Below the pieces are notes generated by a model. It was not told the DNA's origin. It saw only the letters and a list, made by a program, of their open reading frames with translations, and searched no databases. From Clostridia bacterium (GTDB taxonomy: Bacteria; Bacillota; Clostridia; UBA1212; UBA1255), in assembly GCA_017560225.1 (NCBI GenBank), contig JAFYOJ010000094.1:1-27107 (forward strand): 27,107 nucleotides of DNA, given 5' to 3'. Every line of letters begins with the position of its first letter. Position 1 is the first letter of the stretch. The position numbers were made by a program, and so were the translations under genes. Positions 18,790-26,797 of the stretch are shown here, in pieces.

Positions 18790-19043
18790 TCAAACATCCC
18801 CCTTGATTTATTGTAGCATAAAACTTAAGAATATATCAATTATTCATTCTTCATTTTCGTTTTATACGGGAGGCGGCTGCGCCGAACCACCCCTGTTTCT
18901 GCTTATTACAATTTTCTAAGAAACACAAAAGCACCACCGATGGCGTACCTGCGATAGAGCAGGTACGCCATTGGTGTTTGTATTGGTTTGGATGCAAGAA
19001 TGAATTGTAGTAAAATCAAAATGTAATTTTGGAGGATACTGCA

Positions 19044-19427
19044 ATGAAAAAGAACTTTGAATCCCTTTATGAAACCCTTGGAGGAAGCTACCGCGAGGAA
19101 AACGGACACTTTATTCCCGATATTACACTTCCTGAGCAAACCGACTATCAAATCGGTAAGTATGGACGGATGTACCTTAATTACATCAAGAACCATCGTC
19201 GCGGAAGATACACCACCCTGCTGACCGAAGGTAAATTGAATACTTGGCTTCACGAAATCGACTTTGAAGCAAACGAAATGCTTGAAACCATCATCCACCG
19301 CCTTGCTTCCGAAAGAGGCATCGACGAGAACTTGAAAGCTCGCGATATGCTTCGTTGGGTTACAGAAATGAACAATATTAAAGCAAGCGCGGAGGAAATT
19401 GTGTTGCAGGAGGTGATCTACGTATGA
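19044..19427 (+). CDS. TnpV-like protein (Tn4451-type small transposon-associated protein)
   Basis: The pattern LPEQ ... GKYGR ... YLK ... LL..GKL ... EID ... KA.D.L.WV..MNNI ... EIV matches TnpV-like proteins as I recall them. GGAGG lies 8 nt before ATG 19044. Confidence 0.55.
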   Translation: MKKNFESLYETLGGSYREENGHFIPDITLPEQTDYQIGKYGRMYLNYIKNHRRGRYTTLLTEGKLNTWLHEIDFEANEMLETIIHRLASERGIDENLKARDMLRWVTEMNNIKASAEEIVLQEVIYV

Positions 19428-19705
19428 GATCAATTCTGCAGGAACTTTGGCACGGAAACATCTGCCCACAAACCGATAGTCGCAACAATTCTCCCGAAAT
19501 GAAGCAATTGATGGAATATATGGCGCGGCATCACGATGATCTACTCAAAACAATGACCGACGAACAAAAAGAGATCTTTGAAAAGTTCGACGATTGTTGG
19601 AGCGAGTATGCAAGCTATGCCGAAGAAGCTATCTTTACGTATGCTTTCAAATTAGGCGCACAACTGATGCTTGAAACACAGTTGCAACTCAATAAAGAGG
19701 GGTAA
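19424..19705 (+). CDS. Conserved hypothetical protein commonly found next to TnpV in Clostridia mobile elements
   Basis: It overlaps the TnpV-like stop (ATGA). The N-terminus MRSILQELWHGNI and the QKEIFEKF block look familiar from mobile-element accessory regions. Confidence 0.5.
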   Translation: MRSILQELWHGNICPQTDSRNNSPEMKQLMEYMARHHDDLLKTMTDEQKEIFEKFDDCWSEYASYAEEAIFTYAFKLGAQLMLETQLQLNKEG

Positions 19706-19710
19706 CTGCA

Positions 19711-20064
19711 ATGCAAAAATCAACTTTTCTTATATCAGTTGGGCATCGCATTGCGAAAGCTCGCGCGGAGAAAGGATATAGTCAAGCAATGCTTGCCGAA
19801 AAAGCCAATATTTCAGTCAGCCATTTGAGTAATATTGAGCGCGGACGCAAAAGTCTAAGTGCAGAAGTCTTACTTAAAATTTCTGAAGCTTTACAAGTAT
19901 CGGCAGATGGCATATTGTTCACCGATATTCCTCAAGTACATAAAGAAGTTGAAAGTCAAATAAACGGCAACCTCAATAATTGTACTGTAAGAGAGAAAGA
20001 ATTTATACTCAAGCTCATCAAGGATATAGGTGCATTTATTACTGAGATCAAGACGGAAATTTAA
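19711..20064 (+). CDS. XRE-family helix-turn-helix transcriptional regulator
   Basis: GYSQAMLAEKANISVSHLSNIERGRKSLSAEVLLKISEAL is a canonical HTH_XRE. Confidence 0.8.
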   Translation: MQKSTFLISVGHRIAKARAEKGYSQAMLAEKANISVSHLSNIERGRKSLSAEVLLKISEALQVSADGILFTDIPQVHKEVESQINGNLNNCTVREKEFILKLIKDIGAFITEIKTEI

Positions 20065-20252
20065 CAACTCAAAGGAGATACGAGTCGTTTTTTGATTCGT
20101 ATCTCTGTTTTTTATAATTCACATAGTCCATAGGCTATATCATAGTCTGTGGATTATTTTCATTTTAACTGATATTTGATACAATAATACCAACCATAAA
20201 TATATTCATCTTATCGTGATAAAATAATTAGGTAGAAGGAGGATGATAGAAT

Positions 20253-21092
20253 ATGAGAAAAATAACAACCGAAACAATAAAATCATTCAATGACTATCTG
20301 ATTAATGAGGAAAAGGCGGCGGCAACCGTCAACAAATATTTGCACGACGTTGGTGATTTTCAAATATGGCTTGGTGAGCAGGAGTTGTGTAAAACGGCGG
20401 TTCTTGCGTATAAATCATACCTTTGCGAGCATTATGCCCCTGCAAGTGTCAATGCCGCGCTCTCATCGCTCAATAGCTTTTTCAATTTTATGGAGTGGTA
20501 TGATTTGAGAGTAAAGAATCTGAAAATTCAAAAACAGATATTTGCTTCAATCGATAAGGAATTGACCAAGGCTGAGTATGACCGTCTTTTACAAGCTGCA
20601 AAGCAAAAGAAAAACGAGCGCTTGTATCTCTTAATGCAGACGATATGCTCCACGGGAATCCGTGTGTCCGAAGTGCGCTACGTTACTGTCGAGGCAGTGG
20701 TGCGCGGTATTGCCGAGATCAACTGCAAGGGCAAGCGCAGACAAGTATTTTTACCGAAGCAGCTTTGTCAGATATTAAAGCAGTATATTAAGGAGCAAAA
20801 AATAAAAAGCGGAGCCGTGTTTGTAACGAAGAACGGCAATCCGCTTGATAGATCGAATATTTGGAGTGATATGAAAAAGCTATGTAAGGCGGCGAATGTG
20901 TCGGAGAAGAAAGTCTTTCCCCACAATCTCCGTCACCTTTTCGCGCGCACTTATTACAGCTTACAAAAGGATATCGTGCGCTTGGCTGACATCCTCGGTC
21001 ATAGCAGCGTGAATACAACGAGAATTTATACAATGGAAACGGGCGAGATACACCGAAGACAGATTCAGAAATTGGGACTTCTACGGTGTTAA
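20253..21092 (+). CDS. Small tyrosine recombinase (XerC/D-like, 279 aa), candidate DNA invertase for the adjacent switch
   Basis: It has an N-terminal SAM-like core-binding domain. Catalytic signatures are GIRVSEV (Arg I), HNLRHLF (H-x-x-R) and GHSSVNTTRIYT (Tyr nucleophile). It has no phage-integrase arm-binding extension and ends 18 nt before the inverted repeat. Confidence 0.85.
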   Translation: MRKITTETIKSFNDYLINEEKAAATVNKYLHDVGDFQIWLGEQELCKTAVLAYKSYLCEHYAPASVNAALSSLNSFFNFMEWYDLRVKNLKIQKQIFASIDKELTKAEYDRLLQAAKQKKNERLYLLMQTICSTGIRVSEVRYVTVEAVVRGIAEINCKGKRRQVFLPKQLCQILKQYIKEQKIKSGAVFVTKNGNPLDRSNIWSDMKKLCKAANVSEKKVFPHNLRHLFARTYYSLQKDIVRLADILGHSSVNTTRIYTMETGEIHRRQIQKLGLLRC

Positions 21093-21110
21093 CTACCGAT
21101 AAAAAGAAAC

Positions 21111-21137
21111 CTACCACATAATTCTCGTTATGTAGTA
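21111..21137. repeat. Left arm of a perfect 27-bp inverted repeat (CTACCACATAATTCTCGTTATGTAGTA)
   Basis: It is the exact reverse complement of 21332..21358, checked base by base. Confidence 0.9.
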
Positions 21138-21279
21138 ATATAAAGTAAAAAAATATAAGCGCAATACAATCGTATTACGCCCAACAAGACCAATGAAAAA
21201 ATCTAATTTTCATTGGTCTAATTTCCATGCCTATTTTGTAAATTTTTATCTAAAAATCTCATATTGTTGCCTTTTTGGA

Positions 21280-21308
21280 TTGACAAAAGGCTTTGAAAGT
21301 GATATAAT
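21280..21308 (+). promoter_or_regulatory. Consensus sigma-70 promoter with an extended -10 element inside the invertible segment, currently directed into the SPFH operon
   Basis: It is TTGACA-17nt-TATAAT, preceded by TG (TGATATAAT). Confidence 0.65.
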
Positions 21309-21331
21309 ATTTTATGTATAAATATTTCATC

Positions 21332-21358
21332 TACTACATAACGAGAATTATGTGGTAG
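21332..21358. repeat. Right arm of a perfect 27-bp inverted repeat (TACTACATAACGAGAATTATGTGGTAG)
   Basis: It is the exact reverse complement of 21111..21137. It lies in the 5' UTR, 21 nt before the operon RBS. Confidence 0.9.
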
Positions 21359-21379
21359 AAATAAAAAAGGAGTCGCGCT

Positions 21380-22678
21380 ATGGCAATTGTAGAAGTAATA
21401 CAATACAACGGCAATCCTGATGTCTTCGCTTGGAAATATCCCAATAACGAGCTCGGCACCTGGACACAGTTAATTGTAAACGAATCACAAGAAGCAATCT
21501 TAGTTAAAGGCGGACAGGTATGCGATATATTCCAAGCCGGCCGCCACACGCTGAGTACCAATAATATTCCGATACTTAGCAAACTCGTTAATATTCCTTT
21601 CGGTGGACGTTCACCGTTTACTGCGGAAGTTTGGTATATTAACAAGGTCTTTTCTTTGGACGTAAAGTGGGGTACCTCCACTCCAATTCAACTTCAAGAC
21701 CCCAAGTATAAGGTTTTTGTACCTGTCAGAGCTTTTGGACAATTTGGTATCCAAATTGAGGATTCTAAGAAATTCTTACTGAAGCTTGTAGGCACATTGC
21801 CCACATTTGACAAGGCAACTCTTCTTAAATTCTTTAGAGGCGTCTATTTAACAAAAGCTAAGGATGCAATTTCGTCTTACTTGGTACATAAAAACATCAG
21901 CATCTTAGAAATCAACGCATATCTTGACGAAATATCAACATTCCTTCAAGAAAAGATGGCACCGACGTTCTCGGATTATGGAATCAAGCTTGTATCCTTT
22001 TTCGTTAATGACATCAATGTCCCCGAGGATGACAAAGCAGTTGTTCAGCTCAAAAATGCCCTTGCCAAGAGAGCTGAAATGGATATTGTTGGTTACAGTT
22101 ATCAGCAAGAGCGTTCTTTCGATACATTGGAGGGCGCTGCCAACAATCCGAATTCTATGTCTGGTGGCTTGATGGGTGCTGGCATCGGTCTTGGAATGGG
22201 CGTAGGTATGGGAGGAGCTATTGGTAATCAGTTTGGTGGAATCGCGCAATCGATCAATACCAACGATACCAAAGAATGTCCTAATTGCAAAGGCAGAATT
22301 GGCACAAACGAAAGATTTTGCCATCTCTGCGGTTGCGATACTTCCGCTCCCAAAAAGGAATCTAAGAAAGAATCTGCAATCAAATGCTCAAATTGTGGAG
22401 CCGCTATGACCGAAAACACAAAATTCTGTCCTGAGTGCGGAAATCGTTACAATCCATGTAGCAATTGTAAAGCAGATATTCCCGACGGTGCAAAAGTATG
22501 TCCGGAGTGTGGAACGAAGGTTCCTGTGCCGTGTCCGAAGTGCGGTCACTTATTAACGGGAAATAGCAAGTTCTGCCCCGAATGTGGTCATTCTCTCATT
22601 AGAAAATGCTCGGGTTGTGGAAAAGAAATAGAGGGCTCTACTAAGTTCTGCCCCGAGTGCGGAACACCTGTTAATTAA
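21380..22678 (+). CDS. SPFH/band-7-domain protein (COG4260/YdjI-like) with a Gly/Met-rich linker and ~5 tandem C-terminal zinc-ribbon repeats
   Basis: The N-terminal region is IVNESQEAILVKGGQ ... TAEVWYINK, as in YdjI-like SPFH proteins. The linker is GGLMGAGIGLGMGVGMGGAIGNQFGG. Repeated CPNC/CSNC/CSNC/CPKC/CSGC ... KFCPECG units follow. AAGGAG lies 7 nt before ATG. Confidence 0.8.
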   Translation: MAIVEVIQYNGNPDVFAWKYPNNELGTWTQLIVNESQEAILVKGGQVCDIFQAGRHTLSTNNIPILSKLVNIPFGGRSPFTAEVWYINKVFSLDVKWGTSTPIQLQDPKYKVFVPVRAFGQFGIQIEDSKKFLLKLVGTLPTFDKATLLKFFRGVYLTKAKDAISSYLVHKNISILEINAYLDEISTFLQEKMAPTFSDYGIKLVSFFVNDINVPEDDKAVVQLKNALAKRAEMDIVGYSYQQERSFDTLEGAANNPNSMSGGLMGAGIGLGMGVGMGGAIGNQFGGIAQSINTNDTKECPNCKGRIGTNERFCHLCGCDTSAPKKESKKESAIKCSNCGAAMTENTKFCPECGNRYNPCSNCKADIPDGAKVCPECGTKVPVPCPKCGHLLTGNSKFCPECGHSLIRKCSGCGKEIEGSTKFCPECGTPVN

Positions 22679-22691
22679 GGAGGGCTAATCT

Positions 22692-23363
22692 ATGAAAAAC
22701 GCAAAACTTACTACGCTTATTTGCGGATTGATCTCCATAGCAGCAACTGTAATATTCTATTTGCTCACCTTTGACAACATCTTTACTATTCCAATGAGAT
22801 GGGTGTCACTGATGCTTTTGCTTGTTGCAGAAGTGATTGGAACATTGAAAGCAATATTTGTTAATAAAAACATTATTACACAAGCAAGTATTTTTACAAG
22901 TGTTGCCCACCTTGTAGCGGTATTGGTCATATCAATTGTTTTCGTTAATTTCTTCCCCCTCGCAATTAGAACATATATCCTCTTAAATATCTTGTTGTTA
23001 TGTGCGATGGCAGCGGCTGATTTGTTCGTATCTCATTTTGGAAAAAACATTTCTGCAAGCAACAAAAAATTGGCACAAAGCCAGTCTGTCATGGATGCGT
23101 GCTATGCCAAAGCTCAGGGACTTGTAGTTGTATACGGACAAAGTGAGTACAAAAAAGATTTGATTGAGATTTCTGAACTTATTAAGTATTCGGATAATAG
23201 CGAGCTTACAGACGATGAGCCTGCTATCATGGGAAAACTCGGAGAGTTAGAATCTCAACTAAAGGAAAACGGCGAGAACATTTCCGCTTTGATTTCCGAA
23301 ATCAAAAATTTAATTAACTTGCGCACCATAAAAATGAAAAGCATAAAGAGAGGCGGCTATTAA
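22692..23363 (+). CDS. Membrane protein (4 predicted TM segments) with a C-terminal coiled-coil tail
   Basis: Hydrophobic segments in the first ~120 aa are followed by a charged helical region. AAGGAGG lies before ATG. It is tightly spaced in the operon. Confidence 0.6.
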   Translation: MKNAKLTTLICGLISIAATVIFYLLTFDNIFTIPMRWVSLMLLLVAEVIGTLKAIFVNKNIITQASIFTSVAHLVAVLVISIVFVNFFPLAIRTYILLNILLLCAMAAADLFVSHFGKNISASNKKLAQSQSVMDACYAKAQGLVVVYGQSEYKKDLIEISELIKYSDNSELTDDEPAIMGKLGELESQLKENGENISALISEIKNLINLRTIKMKSIKRGGY

Positions 23364-23386
23364 GCCGCAAATGGAGGTTAGATAGA

Positions 23387-24031
23387 ATGAGTAATAAAAA
23401 TAACAACTTGGGCTGTTTATATTCTTGGCCCGTAATTATCATCGCACTGATTTGCTTTTGGCCTGTAGGTTTGTTTTTGATCATCAAAAGAGCTTCTGTT
23501 GACAAAAAGACAGCAATGGCTTCAGGTAAGCTCATTAAAGGTCTCGGCATTGCCTCTTGTTGTATGGCTGCCCTTGGTTTCTTAGTGTGCCTAAGTGACG
23601 GATTTGATGGCACTGATGTAGGAATGATTATTTTCTTTGCTGCTGCGGGTGCCGCTCTTCTTTACTTGGCAAACAAAATTAAAAAGGATGCGGATAGTGT
23701 AAAACTGTACCTTAACATCATTGTAAACGGTGGCGAAAGACAACTTGACTCTGTTGCTGCGGCAACTGGCAAGCAGTATGACGTTGTCAAAAAGGATGTT
23801 CAAAAGATGATTGATAAGGGCTTCTTAAAGAACGCCTATATCAATGAAAACACAAGAGAGGTTGTACTTCCTTCCGCAGCTCCTGCCAACGTGAATGTGG
23901 CTCAGCCCACAGGTGGAACAGCTCCTGCGGCGGCACAGACGAGAGTTATTGCTTGCCCTTGTTGCGGAGCTAACAATACCATATCCGGCGATATTGGTGA
24001 GTGCGAGTATTGTGGAACACCTTTGAAGTAA
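23387..24031 (+). CDS. Membrane protein with a C-terminal zinc ribbon
   Basis: Three hydrophobic segments and then a soluble region ending CPCCGANNTISGDIGECEYCG. GGAGG lies 9 nt before ATG. Confidence 0.6.
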   Translation: MSNKNNNLGCLYSWPVIIIALICFWPVGLFLIIKRASVDKKTAMASGKLIKGLGIASCCMAALGFLVCLSDGFDGTDVGMIIFFAAAGAALLYLANKIKKDADSVKLYLNIIVNGGERQLDSVAAATGKQYDVVKKDVQKMIDKGFLKNAYINENTREVVLPSAAPANVNVAQPTGGTAPAAAQTRVIACPCCGANNTISGDIGECEYCGTPLK

Positions 24032-24046
24032 TTACAAAATTTAATT

Positions 24047-24685
24047 ATGGAAAAAAGATGTTCTAATTGTAACGGATCACTTAAATTATCCGCCGATAAA
24101 ACCAAGTGGATATGTGACTTTTGTGAGTCTGAATTTTGGATTGAAGAAGGTACCAAACCAAATTTTGTTGCTGAGCAAAGCGCTTCGGCTACTTACTACA
24201 TTGGTACGGTAAAAGTATCAAAGGAATCAATTCAAAAAATAGATACTTATATGGCAACAAACCAAAAGCTTAATGCCATAAAATTTGTACGAGAAATAAG
24301 TGGTTTGGGACTTGCCGATGCAAAAACATGGGTTGAAAGTTATAAAAACTATAATCTCGAAGAGCCGCAAAAGTTTGAACCCGCAACGTTTTCTACACAA
24401 CAAACTGCCAACAAATCCGGTTGTTATGTTGCGACTTGCGTCTACGGTTCCTATGATTGTCCACAGGTTTGGACGCTTCGTCGTTATCGCGACGATACTC
24501 TCGGTTCCACTTGGTACGGTAGACTGTTTATTCGTACATACTATGCGATCAGCCCTACTCTCGTAAAGTGGTTTGGCAAAACGAATTGGTTCAAGAAACT
24601 TTGGAAGGGTAAACTTGATCGTATGGTTGCAAAGCTCCAATCTAATGGTGTAGAAGATACTCCCTACGAAGATAAGAACTGGTAA
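24047..24685 (+). CDS. Protein with an N-terminal zinc ribbon, a ribosomal L7/L12 C-terminal-domain-like motif and a Cys-rich C-terminal module
   Basis: CSNCNG ... CDFCES is the zinc ribbon. KLNAIKFVREISGLGLADAKTWVES parallels the L7/L12 block K-V-A-V-I-K-A-V-R-x-x-T-G-L-G-L-K-E-A-K-D-L-V-E-S. The C-terminus is CYVATCVYGSYDCPQVWTLRRYRD ... YYAISP. Confidence 0.6.
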   Translation: MEKRCSNCNGSLKLSADKTKWICDFCESEFWIEEGTKPNFVAEQSASATYYIGTVKVSKESIQKIDTYMATNQKLNAIKFVREISGLGLADAKTWVESYKNYNLEEPQKFEPATFSTQQTANKSGCYVATCVYGSYDCPQVWTLRRYRDDTLGSTWYGRLFIRTYYAISPTLVKWFGKTNWFKKLWKGKLDRMVAKLQSNGVEDTPYEDKNW

Positions 24686-24698
24686 TAGAGATAAAAAC

Positions 24699-24738
24699 AA
24701 AAGCCAAGTGGTATAAAATCATACCATTTGGCTTTTTG
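24699..24738 (+). terminator. Rho-independent terminator after the four-gene operon
   Basis: It is GCCAAGTGGTAT-AAAATC-ATACCATTTGGC (12-bp stem with one G-U pair) followed by TTTTT. Confidence 0.65.
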
Positions 24739-24815
24739 AATTTACAGTCAAATTCAAAAGTTTTATATCACAATGATATTCCGAATATATTGAAACAAAT
24801 ATTTTCACTAACCTC

Positions 24816-24844
24816 TTGACAACGGAAAAATTATGTGATATAAT
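24816..24844 (+). promoter_or_regulatory. Sigma-70 promoter with an extended -10 element for the LexA-like module
   Basis: It is TTGACA-17nt-TATAAT, preceded by TG (TGATATAAT). Confidence 0.55.
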
Positions 24845-24857
24845 AACTCTACATACT

Positions 24858-24872
24858 GAAACATTATGTTTC
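24858..24872. promoter_or_regulatory. Palindromic candidate operator GAAACATTATGTTTC between the promoter and the RBS
   Basis: It has perfect 7-bp arms with a 1-nt spacer. It is related to the Firmicute LexA (Cheo) box core GAAC-N4-GTTC but with GAAAC/GTTTC arms. Confidence 0.4.
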
Positions 24873-24883
24873 TCGGAGGCGTT

Positions 24884-25498
24884 ATGCGAAGACAAGATGA
24901 ATCGAAAAAGAGTGTGATACTTGATTTTATCGACGAGTATTACAATGAATATAACGAGATCCCTGCCGTGAGAACTATTGCGGAGGGCACGGGAATTGCT
25001 TTGGCAACCGTGCATCGCTATCTGCTCTCGCTCAAAGAAAGCGGCGAGCTTGAATACAACGGTCGCAAGTCGATCTCTACCAAGCGTATCGATTTGGAAT
25101 CGCGTCACACTTCTGCTCCCGTTCTCGGTTACGTCCGTTGCGGCGAAGGAGAAGAAGAAACAGAGGAAGTCATCGAGTATATCCGACTCCCCGAAAGTTT
25201 AGTCGGTACGGGCGAGTTTTTCGTGCTGATCGCCAAGGGTGATTCGATGATCGACGCCGGAGTGAATGAAGGTGACTACGTTGTTATCCGCAAGCAAAAC
25301 ACCGCAAACGACGGAGATTACGTTGTGGCTCTCTATGAAGGGCTGAACAATCTCAAGGAGCTTGTTGTCGATAACGGAAGATATATTCTTCGTTCTTGTA
25401 ACGAAGATAAGGACACCTATCCCGACATTTATCCGAGAGATCTGAAGATACAAGGAGTTGCGGTCTGCGTAATGCACCGCTTGAAGAGAAGGAGGTAG
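24884..25498 (+). CDS. LexA-like transcriptional repressor with an S24 peptidase domain
   Basis: The N-terminus is a winged helix (IPAVRTIAEGTGIALATVHRYL). The C-terminal S24 signature is AKGDSMIDAGVNEGDYVVIRKQ (Ser-Lys dyad context). The start was set at the second ATG, with GGAGG 4 nt upstream. Confidence 0.75.
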   Translation: MRRQDESKKSVILDFIDEYYNEYNEIPAVRTIAEGTGIALATVHRYLLSLKESGELEYNGRKSISTKRIDLESRHTSAPVLGYVRCGEGEEETEEVIEYIRLPESLVGTGEFFVLIAKGDSMIDAGVNEGDYVVIRKQNTANDGDYVVALYEGLNNLKELVVDNGRYILRSCNEDKDTYPDIYPRDLKIQGVAVCVMHRLKRRR

Positions 25499-25501
25499 TC
25501 G

Positions 25502-26425: not shown

Positions 26426-26797
26426 ATGAAACAGACAGAGGAAAAAGTGAAAGGCGGGCGCAAGCGCACCCACCTCGTCAAAGTGTATTTGAATGATGCC
26501 GAGTATGAAAAGCTGTGTAAGGACGCGGAGATGTTCAAGCGAGATAAGAGCAAATATCTGCGGCTACTTATCGATTGGATCGAACCGGTTGCACCGCCGT
26601 CGGTGGAAGTCAAGGAGTTTACGCGAGAGCTTCGTCGCTTGGGCGTGAGTATGAATCAGATCGCGGCGCGAGCGAACTCGCTCGGCTTTGTGGATGACCT
26701 TGAATACCGCCGCTACGCCGACGAGGTAATGAAGGTGCTTGGCGCGATCCAACAAGAATACGCCAAGAAAGGAGTGAAGCTGATTGGCAACAACTAA
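26426..26797 (+). CDS. mobC: MobC-family mobilization (relaxosome accessory) protein
   Basis: It has an N-terminal ribbon-helix-helix-like KRTHLVKVYLNDAEYEKL, and LRRLGVSMNQIAARANSLG matches the MobC GxNLNQIAxxxN block. AAAGGAG lies before ATG. Confidence 0.7.
   Translation: MKQTEEKVKGGRKRTHLVKVYLNDAEYEKLCKDAEMFKRDKSKYLRLLIDWIEPVAPPSVEVKEFTRELRRLGVSMNQIAARANSLGFVDDLEYRRYADEVMKVLGAIQQEYAKKGVKLIGNN

Follow-up and report, generated by a model that had tools for sequence, protein, structure and literature searches.

What does a small operon, built around a gene for an SPFH protein, do behind a promoter enclosed by inverted repeats? The question is raised by contig JAFYOJ010000094.1 of a Clostridia bacterium (assembly GCA_017560225.1), analysed here over its whole length of 27,107 nucleotides, which is referred to as the window; in it four genes, named A to D, follow a Xer-like recombinase gene and a DNA switch. 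SPFH proteins (stomatin/prohibitin/flotillin/HflKC) are found in every domain of life, and the function of most bacterial members is unclear; the YdjI/SamI branch, to which protein A appears to belong, has to our knowledge been studied essentially in one organism so far. The segment carrying the promoter is found in both orientations in nature, and the answer that we regard as reasonably probable is that of a portable phase-variable cassette, in which an SPFH scaffold, lying under the membrane, would alter the state of the envelope in a subpopulation of cells.

The switch is compact. An invertible segment of 194 nt (21138–21331), present in the window in the ON orientation, is enclosed by two 27-nt inverted repeats, at 21111–21137 on the left and 21332–21358 on the right, which are 100% complementary to each other: the unit measures 248 bp in all. 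Each repeat is a complete recombinase core site, composed of two 10-bp half-sites around a 6-bp asymmetric spacer (TACCACATAA-TTCTCG-TTATGTAGTA in the left repeat, TACTACATAA-CGAGAA-TTATGTGGTA in the right one, which is located within the 5' untranslated region when the switch is ON). Reverse complementarity of the two spacers places the sites in inverted orientation to each other, a geometry leading to inversion. In 6 kb of sequence, chance alone would, by our estimate, produce about 1e-10 perfect inverted repeats of 27 nt within 300 nt. The recombinase gene (20253–21092, plus strand) ends 18 nt before the left repeat. It encodes a Xer-like tyrosine recombinase of 279 aa (Phage_integrase, E=1.8e-30, with a SAM-like N-domain), scoring under the cutoffs of XerA, XerC and XerD, where the canonical catalytic R, K, HxxR, H and Y residues are found within motifs TGIRVSE (134), CKGK (158), HNLRH (224), GHSS (249) and RIYT (257); it is presumed to be the invertase of the switch.

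Within the segment, a sigma-70 promoter faces gene A (21280–21308, plus strand): TTGACA-17-TGnTATAAT fits the consensus at 12 of 12 positions and has the TG extension. A terminator, with a 12-bp stem and a T-run, is located on the minus strand at 21156–21183. The left repeat, read on the minus strand, also contains a weak hairpin with a T-rich run after it, a signal that was flagged in one of the OFF contigs described below. A further, perfect hairpin of 13 bp (AGACCAATGAAAA / TTTTCATTGGTCT) is found in the middle of the segment, at 21187–21219, and is conserved in a related locus (L043); it may act as an attenuator in both directions, or bind an accessory protein. Zero RNA families were matched in an Rfam E-value scan of positions 19000–25500, indicating the absence of a riboswitch or leader.

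Ten metagenome contigs (L081–L090) encode a protein identical to A, and they differ in the orientation of the segment: collinear with the window in four (L081, L086, L090 and, as a variant, L085), it is reverse-complemented in the other six (L082, L083, L084, L087, L088, L089), which corresponds to about 6 OFF versus 4 ON among the sampled contigs. Mismatches are 0 to 2 within the segment and 0 in the 100-nt left flank; for the right flank, an ungapped check gave 0 mismatches in L083, while in the others a length difference of 1 nt shifts the count. In L083, an OFF contig, the promoter lies on the minus strand, facing the recombinase gene, and the terminator on the plus strand (445–472 of that contig), just upstream of the right repeat and A. 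The 194-bp segment, hence the promoter, is inverted in nature: we have next to no doubt on this point, and the promoter, described as apparently phase-variable in a first-pass annotation made from the sequence alone, proves to be so, with matching flanks on both forms.

It could be objected that the two orientations are artefacts, created by assemblers at inverted repeats: the evidence consists entirely of metagenome contigs assembled from short reads, several of which (L083, L089, L090, L095, L012, L013, L019) end at the switch or inside it. Yet assemblers working with k=119–141 span repeats of 27 nt; the ten contigs are independent, come from different samples and read cleanly across both repeats; and the canonical site with an adjoining recombinase is repeated in 28 further loci. 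The breaks themselves are what a sample of mixed orientations would yield. We consider such an artefact hardly credible.

A cycle may accordingly be outlined for the switch. The Xer-like recombinase would recombine the two inverted core sites, flipping the segment. When ON, the promoter would transcribe A-B-C-D through the right repeat; when OFF, it would be aimed at the recombinase gene from its 3' side, with the left repeat and its T-run there possibly acting as a weak terminator-like signal, while the internal terminator, moved directly before A, would stop read-through from the recombinase gene. Judging from the sequence, the orientation of the segment would therefore set the transcription of A to D.

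The same switch is found elsewhere. In eight genome loci (L004–L009, L011, L024) analogous repeats, with core ACATAAT..ATTATGT, are located 200–260 nt apart. A recombinase gene lies upstream in seven of them; the contig of the eighth, L008, starts too near the switch to show one. For diverged loci, orientation was deduced from the position of the promoter, global identity of the segment being about 0.6 either way in this AT-rich DNA, and so uninformative. In L004, L005, L007, L011 and L024, where the recombinase is 68–78% identical to the copy in the window, the best promoter is a minus-strand one, its relative position being that seen in the window, indicating assemblies in the OFF state. Beyond these loci, a metagenome scan for TACYACATAA-N6-TTATGTRGTA produced 120 loci (L101–L220), 38 of which feature paired sites 130–330 nt apart. 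Spacers are reverse-complementary in all but one of the 38 pairs, and a recombinase homologue (44–61% identity) adjoins 28 of them. None of these sister loci carries A to D. Their cargo includes an operon ending in an EAL phosphodiesterase for cyclic di-GMP (c-di-GMP), which is the most frequent, as well as an operon for sortase pili, signal peptidases of the S26 type and a PG_binding/SpoIID-like protein (examples of sister switches are L144:1616–1926 and L121:6345–6724). Given such cargo, the switch appears to belong to a general family of Clostridia invertons, which usually control envelope or signalling functions.

What the switch controls here is an operon of four genes on the plus strand. 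A (21380–22678, 432 aa), B (22692–23363, 223 aa) and C (23387–24031, 214 aa) are preceded by good Shine-Dalgarno sequences, respectively AAAGGAG, AAGGAGG and GGAGG; D (24047–24685, 212 aa) has none, and starts 15 nt past the stop codon of C. An intrinsic terminator follows at 24699–24741, where a hairpin (24699–24736) with a 16-bp stem, one mismatch and a 6-nt loop precedes TTTTT. The layout corresponds to the one described in the first-pass annotation, with four co-directional genes between the switch promoter and a clean terminator, and ribosome-binding sites for all but the last. In NCBI records, A is named "SPFH domain-containing protein" (MBR5280202.1), B and C "hypothetical protein", and D "ribosomal protein L7/L12" (MBR5280205.1).

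The domain composition previously ascribed to the four proteins is also supported. It comprised, in A, an SPFH domain of YdjI/COG4260 type, a Gly/Met-rich linker and about five zinc ribbons; in B, four transmembrane (TM) segments and a tail; in C, three TM segments and a terminal zinc ribbon; in D, a zinc ribbon, a segment similar to the L7/L12 C-terminal domain (CTD) and a Cys-rich tail. For A, Band_7_1 (PF13421), the Pfam family to which YdjI presumably belongs, is matched at residues 18–223 (E=2.7e-48; 164.8 bits, cutoff 24). The Gly/Met-rich low-complexity linker covers approximately residues 258–290, and the CxxC...CxxC zinc ribbons are exactly five. Hydropathy analysis of A shows zero hydrophobic segments and no membrane anchor, and the protein may be classified as a soluble SPFH protein of the YdjI/SamI type (COG4260). 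Matches to A in a phmmer search of the PDB are confined to the zinc ribbons.

B and C are, in contrast, predicted integral membrane proteins, and no family was matched for either of them in Pfam, NCBIfam, PHROG or PADLOC: they form unannotated families. By hydropathy, B is composed of four hydrophobic segments and a hydrophilic helical tail of about 110 residues; its family comprises 210 representative clusters among 1.84 billion, all of them about 215–237 aa long. C contains three N-terminal TM helices and, at the C-terminus, a CPCC...CEYC zinc ribbon. In an AF2 model of C (pLDDT 58), a winged-helix-like unit is placed between the TM helices and the ribbon; Foldseek relates this low-confidence model to MarR/DtxR winged helices at a non-significant E of about 0.6, which is a hint only that the cytoplasmic domain may be winged-helix-like. 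The soluble domains of both proteins are predicted to face the cytoplasm by the positive-inside rule. C is also a mosaic: between cassettes with identical A (P0317, P0319, P0316), the TM2-loop-TM3 region (residues 39–100; 23500–23690 in the window) is only 35–44% identical, versus 85–90% for the winged-helix part and 82–100% for the ribbon. Hypervariability of C is limited to the membrane and outward-facing part.

The N-terminal zinc ribbon of D is followed by a segment similar to the L7/L12 CTD (residues 71–100; PF00542, 30.8 bits, cutoff 25.9), which corresponds to positions 9–38 only of the 67-position profile and also matches L7/L12 in the PDB at E=0.003. The Cys-containing tail is the NCBIfam domain CFI-box-CTERM (NF041770): residues 126–194 align to positions 1–69 of the 69 in the profile, with 71.3 bits against a cutoff of 40. 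The name assigned to D in the NCBI record has to be rejected as a mis-annotation, since TIGR00855, the model for full-length bL12, scores 28.7 bits, under its equivalog cutoff of 84.4, and D contains in addition a zinc ribbon and a CFI-box. The CFI-box domain (residues 126–212; 24422–24685 in the window), rich in aromatic and basic residues, is shared by proteins with LRR, TPR, zinc-ribbon or other N-termini (P0168–P0240), where identity reaches 94–98%; 6252 proteins match D at E <= 0.001. A literature search on the CFI-box gave no paper, and no structural relative of the domain was found.

Conservation of the operon was evaluated by clustering all neighbours in the best 80 Clostridia loci. 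A is present in all 80; a member of the B family is at position +1 in 70, and a member of the C family at +2 or +3 in 74, with a duplication in 18. None of the other neighbours recurs in more than 10 of the 80 loci. A-B-C are thus co-conserved, and form the core module. D, found only in the clade of the window and in L006, with a remnant in L043, is an accessory gene, restricted to two sublineages. Identity to A ranges from 62 to 96% across its relatives, which are more than 509 among GTDB species genomes. The first-pass annotation raised the question whether the four-gene arrangement is conserved, together with the adjoining recombinase and inverted repeats: it is for A-B-C and not for D; the repeats recur in the eight genome loci described above, seven of them with the recombinase, while 66 of the 80 loci contain no core-site footprint. 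The absence of a PspA-like gene, reported by the first-pass annotation for this operon, was found to extend to the whole group: no PspA gene is linked to A in any of the 80 loci.

A B-like partner also follows more divergent Band_7_1 genes, with hhalign probabilities of 95.8% for the Butyrivibrio plasmid pNP21, 97.9% for L224, a phage contig, and 79% for Bacteroides finegoldii; in all three, the B-like gene is followed by a differing protein with an N-terminal zinc ribbon. These arrangements indicate a recurrent theme, in which the gene for an SPFH protein is accompanied by those for a membrane protein of B type and for a partner with a zinc ribbon. In the B. finegoldii locus (L092:3357–7546, NZ_OY725907.1) the SPFH gene precedes genes for a 251-aa B-like membrane protein and a 192-aa zinc-ribbon protein; the C-terminus of its product looks GYF-like by eye and contains no ribbons, and the genes before it encode an HTH regulator, a hypothetical protein and a YidD-like protein. 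The pNP21 module, of the type marked below as SPFH2, is accompanied by a serine recombinase, with no convincing inverted-repeat pair before the gene.

The abundance of loci without a footprint suggests a simple alternative, namely that A-B-C is an ordinary housekeeping module of the envelope, mobile by hitch-hiking, and that the switch mainly serves the element or the recombinase. The module is indeed widespread in Clostridia chromosomes without a switch, and some derivatives have lost the recombinase. In L043 (6800–7155; A 96% identical) recombinase and left repeat are lost, while the promoter, directed at A, and the right repeat, now decayed, are kept. Upstream of A in L026 the promoter is kept, along with one decayed or single core site, and no recombinase is present. 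A fixed consensus promoter, followed by one core site, again without recombinase, is found in L235–L244 (L235:6468–6710; A 92% identical). All these derivatives are predicted to be locked ON. Against the alternative, the layout of promoter plus terminator is kept in diverged switches, with recombinases 72% (in the phage contig L221) and 68–78% (in the five OFF genome loci) identical to that of the window; two unrelated classes of recombinase, tyrosine here and serine in L224, precede SPFH modules; and both orientations are common. A housekeeping module with an incidental switch appears, on these grounds, improbable.

L235–L244 also bear on a possible role in development. In one context, the cassette is located immediately after spoIIIAH, downstream of the spoIIIAA-AH genes, and loss of SamI, the YdjI protein of B. 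subtilis, affects differentiation in that organism (bioRxiv 10.64898/2026.02.06.704340): the module might take part in membrane remodelling during sporulation or division, its mobile copy modulating development. The same cassette, followed by an IS30-like (HTH_38) gene, is found elsewhere in L240, however, and no sporulation gene recurs in the 80 loci, so that we consider this role very improbable. The closest relatives were also evaluated as stable housekeeping genes beside spoIIIA; this was rejected, because of the IS30-bearing cassette in a second context and the single fossil core site.

Phage contigs contain other copies. In L221:73–9392 (IMGVR_UViG_3300022660_000109), a cassette with recombinase, switch, A, B, C and a second C gene is located directly after two tail-fibre genes and a holin gene; identity to the window is 72% for the recombinase, 92% for A, 78% for B and 81% for C. 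Its switch is OFF, with promoter and terminator arranged as in the family of the window, the GC-rich terminator lying right before the right repeat. In L224:2410–11037 (IMGVR_UViG_3300031555_010668), a gene encoding Band_7_1 and zinc ribbons, of the SPFH2 type, lies downstream of a GH25 lysin gene. Here a serine recombinase (Resolvase) adjoins a pair of 22-nt inverted repeats separated by 145 nt, and TTGACT-17-TATAAT is found there on the minus strand: a second class of recombinase appears to control an SPFH module. The SPFH2 gene is followed by a B-family gene, by a gene for a 153-aa protein with an RNGIAH (Rx4H) motif and a weak, sub-threshold match to the HEPN family, and by one for an 821-aa ZnR-TPR-TIR-TM-DUF6273 protein, whose match to a ThsB-like PADLOC model is weak (E=0.0012).

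The SPFH2 gene of L224 is 80% identical to a gene fragment found in L085, one of the ten contigs with identical A. In L085:1–620 (ena:ERZ27297554:k141_308290), switch and A to D are as in the window; the left flank, however, is taken up by another SPFH gene, divergent in sequence and encoded on the minus strand, with the ATG 24 nt from the left repeat. This gene is provided with a ribosome-binding site, and shows 52% identity to A and 83% to the SPFH gene of pNP21. The T-run after the left repeat is missing, and the contig is cut within this second gene. If the assembly is correct and not chimeric, one promoter may toggle two alternative SPFH modules.

Such copies are the main support for a different reading, that of a dedicated anti-phage, superinfection-exclusion or abortive-infection system: the SPFH-B pair would sense a membrane event, zinc-ribbon adaptors would deliver variable effectors, and phase variation would limit cost or autoimmunity. 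The position of the L221 cassette is typical of morons; L224 carries weakly HEPN-like and ZnR-TPR-TIR partners behind its repeats and serine recombinase; the zinc-ribbon partner is modular between variants, bearing a CFI-box, a coiled coil or a TIR domain; the membrane part of C is a mosaic, down to 35% identity where the ribbon is 100% identical and A does not change; and in L085 the switch apparently lies between two alternative SPFH genes. Defence genes are, on the other hand, expected to be patchy in distribution, and A is too conserved and too widespread for this. Zero PADLOC models match A to D, no defence gene recurs near the 80 loci, the cassette of the window has no recognisable toxic effector, and the homologous system of B. 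subtilis serves in stress and differentiation. We therefore regard a dedicated defence system as rather unlikely. A bolder proposal would join all the variants: SPFH(Band_7_1)-B, with interchangeable zinc-ribbon adaptors (C, D/CFI-box, ZnR-TPR-coiled coil, ZnR-TPR-TIR, HEPN-like), might form an unrecognised mobile system of membrane conflict, acting against phages, in superinfection exclusion or in abortive infection, and kept stochastic by inversion through independently recruited tyrosine and serine recombinases, with L085-type switches toggling two SPFH modules; it is put forward here as a speculation, which the data make doubtful rather than likely.

The sub-membrane scaffold remains our preferred reading, and its working may be pictured as follows. 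SamI (YdjI) of B. subtilis is brought to the membrane by SamG (YdjG) and SamH (YdjH), and recruits PspA (PMC8581546; PMC9239133; bioRxiv 10.64898/2026.02.06.704340). By analogy, the cytoplasmic domains of B and C would draw A to the membrane from the cytoplasmic side, and the zinc ribbons of A may serve as docking modules; D, with its zinc ribbon, L12-CTD-like segment and aromatic/basic CFI-box tail, would be an optional peripheral-membrane adaptor. That A-B-C, with or without D, assemble into a membrane scaffold is, to our mind, fairly probable. Expression in a fraction of the cells would amount to bet-hedging on the state of membrane or envelope. The most likely benefit would be protection from membrane-directed attack by phage, bacteriocins or host antimicrobials, a suggestion which is only tentative.

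Several points weigh against this reading. The promoter and the terminators are consensus calls, and orientation was observed at the level of contigs, across samples. The absence of SamH or SamG domains from B and C, together with that of PspA from the 80 loci, leaves A as the sole link to SamGHI. Finally, carriage by phages and mobile elements, variable zinc-ribbon partners, a TIR protein among them, and the hypervariability of C within its membrane part agree no less well with a conflict system than with a module for stress protection.

The surroundings of the operon look mobile, in agreement with its earlier placement on a mobile element, while the left half of the window is ordinary chromosome. 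To the left of the recombinase, all on the plus strand, are located a TnpV-like gene (19029–19427; phrog_24764, E=1.5e-35, and PF14198 on the identical gene in L081 and L082), a DUF6809 gene (19424–19705; PF20648 on the identical gene in L081) and an XRE-type HTH regulator gene (19711–20064; HTH_3, E=1e-17), followed by a terminator hairpin at 20074–20106. The TnpV-DUF6809 pair is duplicated in L082, where it flanks another cargo gene. To the right, also on the plus strand, are found genes for a LexA/CI-like S24 repressor (24866–25498; Peptidase_S24, E=5e-21), with a perfect TTGACA-17-TATAAT promoter at 24816–24844, and for a NikA-like mobilisation accessory protein (26426–26797; PF21983, E=4.3e-10). 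A 21-nt imperfect inverted repeat (24763–24783 / 24823–24843) overlaps the -10 box of the repressor promoter, and might serve the mobile element as an operator for autoregulation. Positions 20000–25000 gave no megablast match in PLSDB plasmids or INPHARED phages.

The cassette provides a natural ON/OFF allele, small and self-contained (recombinase, 248-bp switch, three or four genes), which can be locked either way; locking makes the function of a soluble SPFH scaffold, and of two unannotated partner families, directly testable. With it, an intracellular membrane scaffold, carried on mobilisable elements and prophages, joins the surface structures and c-di-GMP enzymes among the phase-variable traits of gut Firmicutes. 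Should the phage-associated variants with TIR and HEPN-like proteins prove defensive, a new membrane-based immunity module would be at hand.

Among known systems, the pspA-ydjGHI module of B. subtilis is the one to which the operon had been likened. YdjI lacks a membrane anchor, and contains a low-complexity linker and, at its C-terminus, a zinc finger (PMC8581546); A shares this architecture, and is encoded with two integral membrane proteins, one of them bearing a ribbon. The logic by which a soluble SPFH protein is recruited by membrane partners is probably alike. The present module differs in that A features five ribbons instead of one and comes first in the gene order, a linked PspA gene is missing, DNA inversion takes the place of sigma-W in its control, and the whole is mobile. 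The partners appear to differ as well. YdjH contains a TPM-phosphatase domain and a coiled coil, and YdjG combines two zinc ribbons with a YpeB/NTF2-like domain and a transmembrane segment (PMC11237479). Neither TPM_phosphatase nor any other Pfam family was found in B, C or their homologues (L033, L079 and others). Compared with the published description of YdjG, C has the reverse layout, with three N-terminal TM helices, a winged-helix-like domain and a single ribbon at the C-terminus. The likeness, accordingly, stands for A, which is homologous to YdjI, and is a thematic analogy for the partners, as judged from domain descriptions and Pfam. The further notion that the parts of the B. subtilis module are here rearranged and fused is not supported: B and C do not look like YdjH and YdjG in their published architectures, and the operon would be a functional analogue of samGHI, not a rearranged copy of it.

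A second comparison concerns prophage morons and CwpV of C. difficile, a phase-variable phage-resistance function. The cassettes of L221 and of the L224 type similarly lie beside phage lysis genes, and appear to be turned ON and OFF by inversion; the encoded proteins are, in contrast, predicted to be cytoplasmic or membrane-bound, not anchored to the cell wall, and have no similarity to known defence proteins. In PADLOC-DB v2, A has no match, B, C and D have chance-level matches only (E >= 0.0067), and nothing useful is obtained for the L224 and pNP21 proteins. A literature search returned no report of an SPFH module under inversion control, carried as a phage or mobile cassette, or linked to defence.

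The switch itself is of a known kind. A 2025 catalogue (PMC11892184) describes a group of Clostridia invertons with adjacent tyrosine invertases; its group 139 may correspond to the present family, and its supplements hold no inverted-repeat motif and no SPFH entry. Like fimS with FimB and FimE in E. coli, or the RecV switches of cwpV, flgB and pdcB in C. difficile, the present switch consists of a short, repeat-bounded promoter segment beside a tyrosine recombinase, and both orientations are found in populations. In C. difficile, pdcB and pdcC are likewise switch-controlled phosphodiesterases, according to bioRxiv 10.1101/2021.10.30.466581; among the sister switches with the present core site, some similarly control an EAL phosphodiesterase, others pili. 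Three features set the present switch apart: its cargo would be an intracellular membrane scaffold, in place of surface structures, restriction-modification systems, resistance genes or signalling enzymes; a terminator, which would close the OFF state, accompanies the promoter within the segment; and the whole unit is portable, occurring on a mobilisable element, within a prophage and in association with an insertion sequence (IS). Invertons and YdjI-type SPFH modules were both already known; what appears to be new is an SPFH module under inversion on a mobile cassette.

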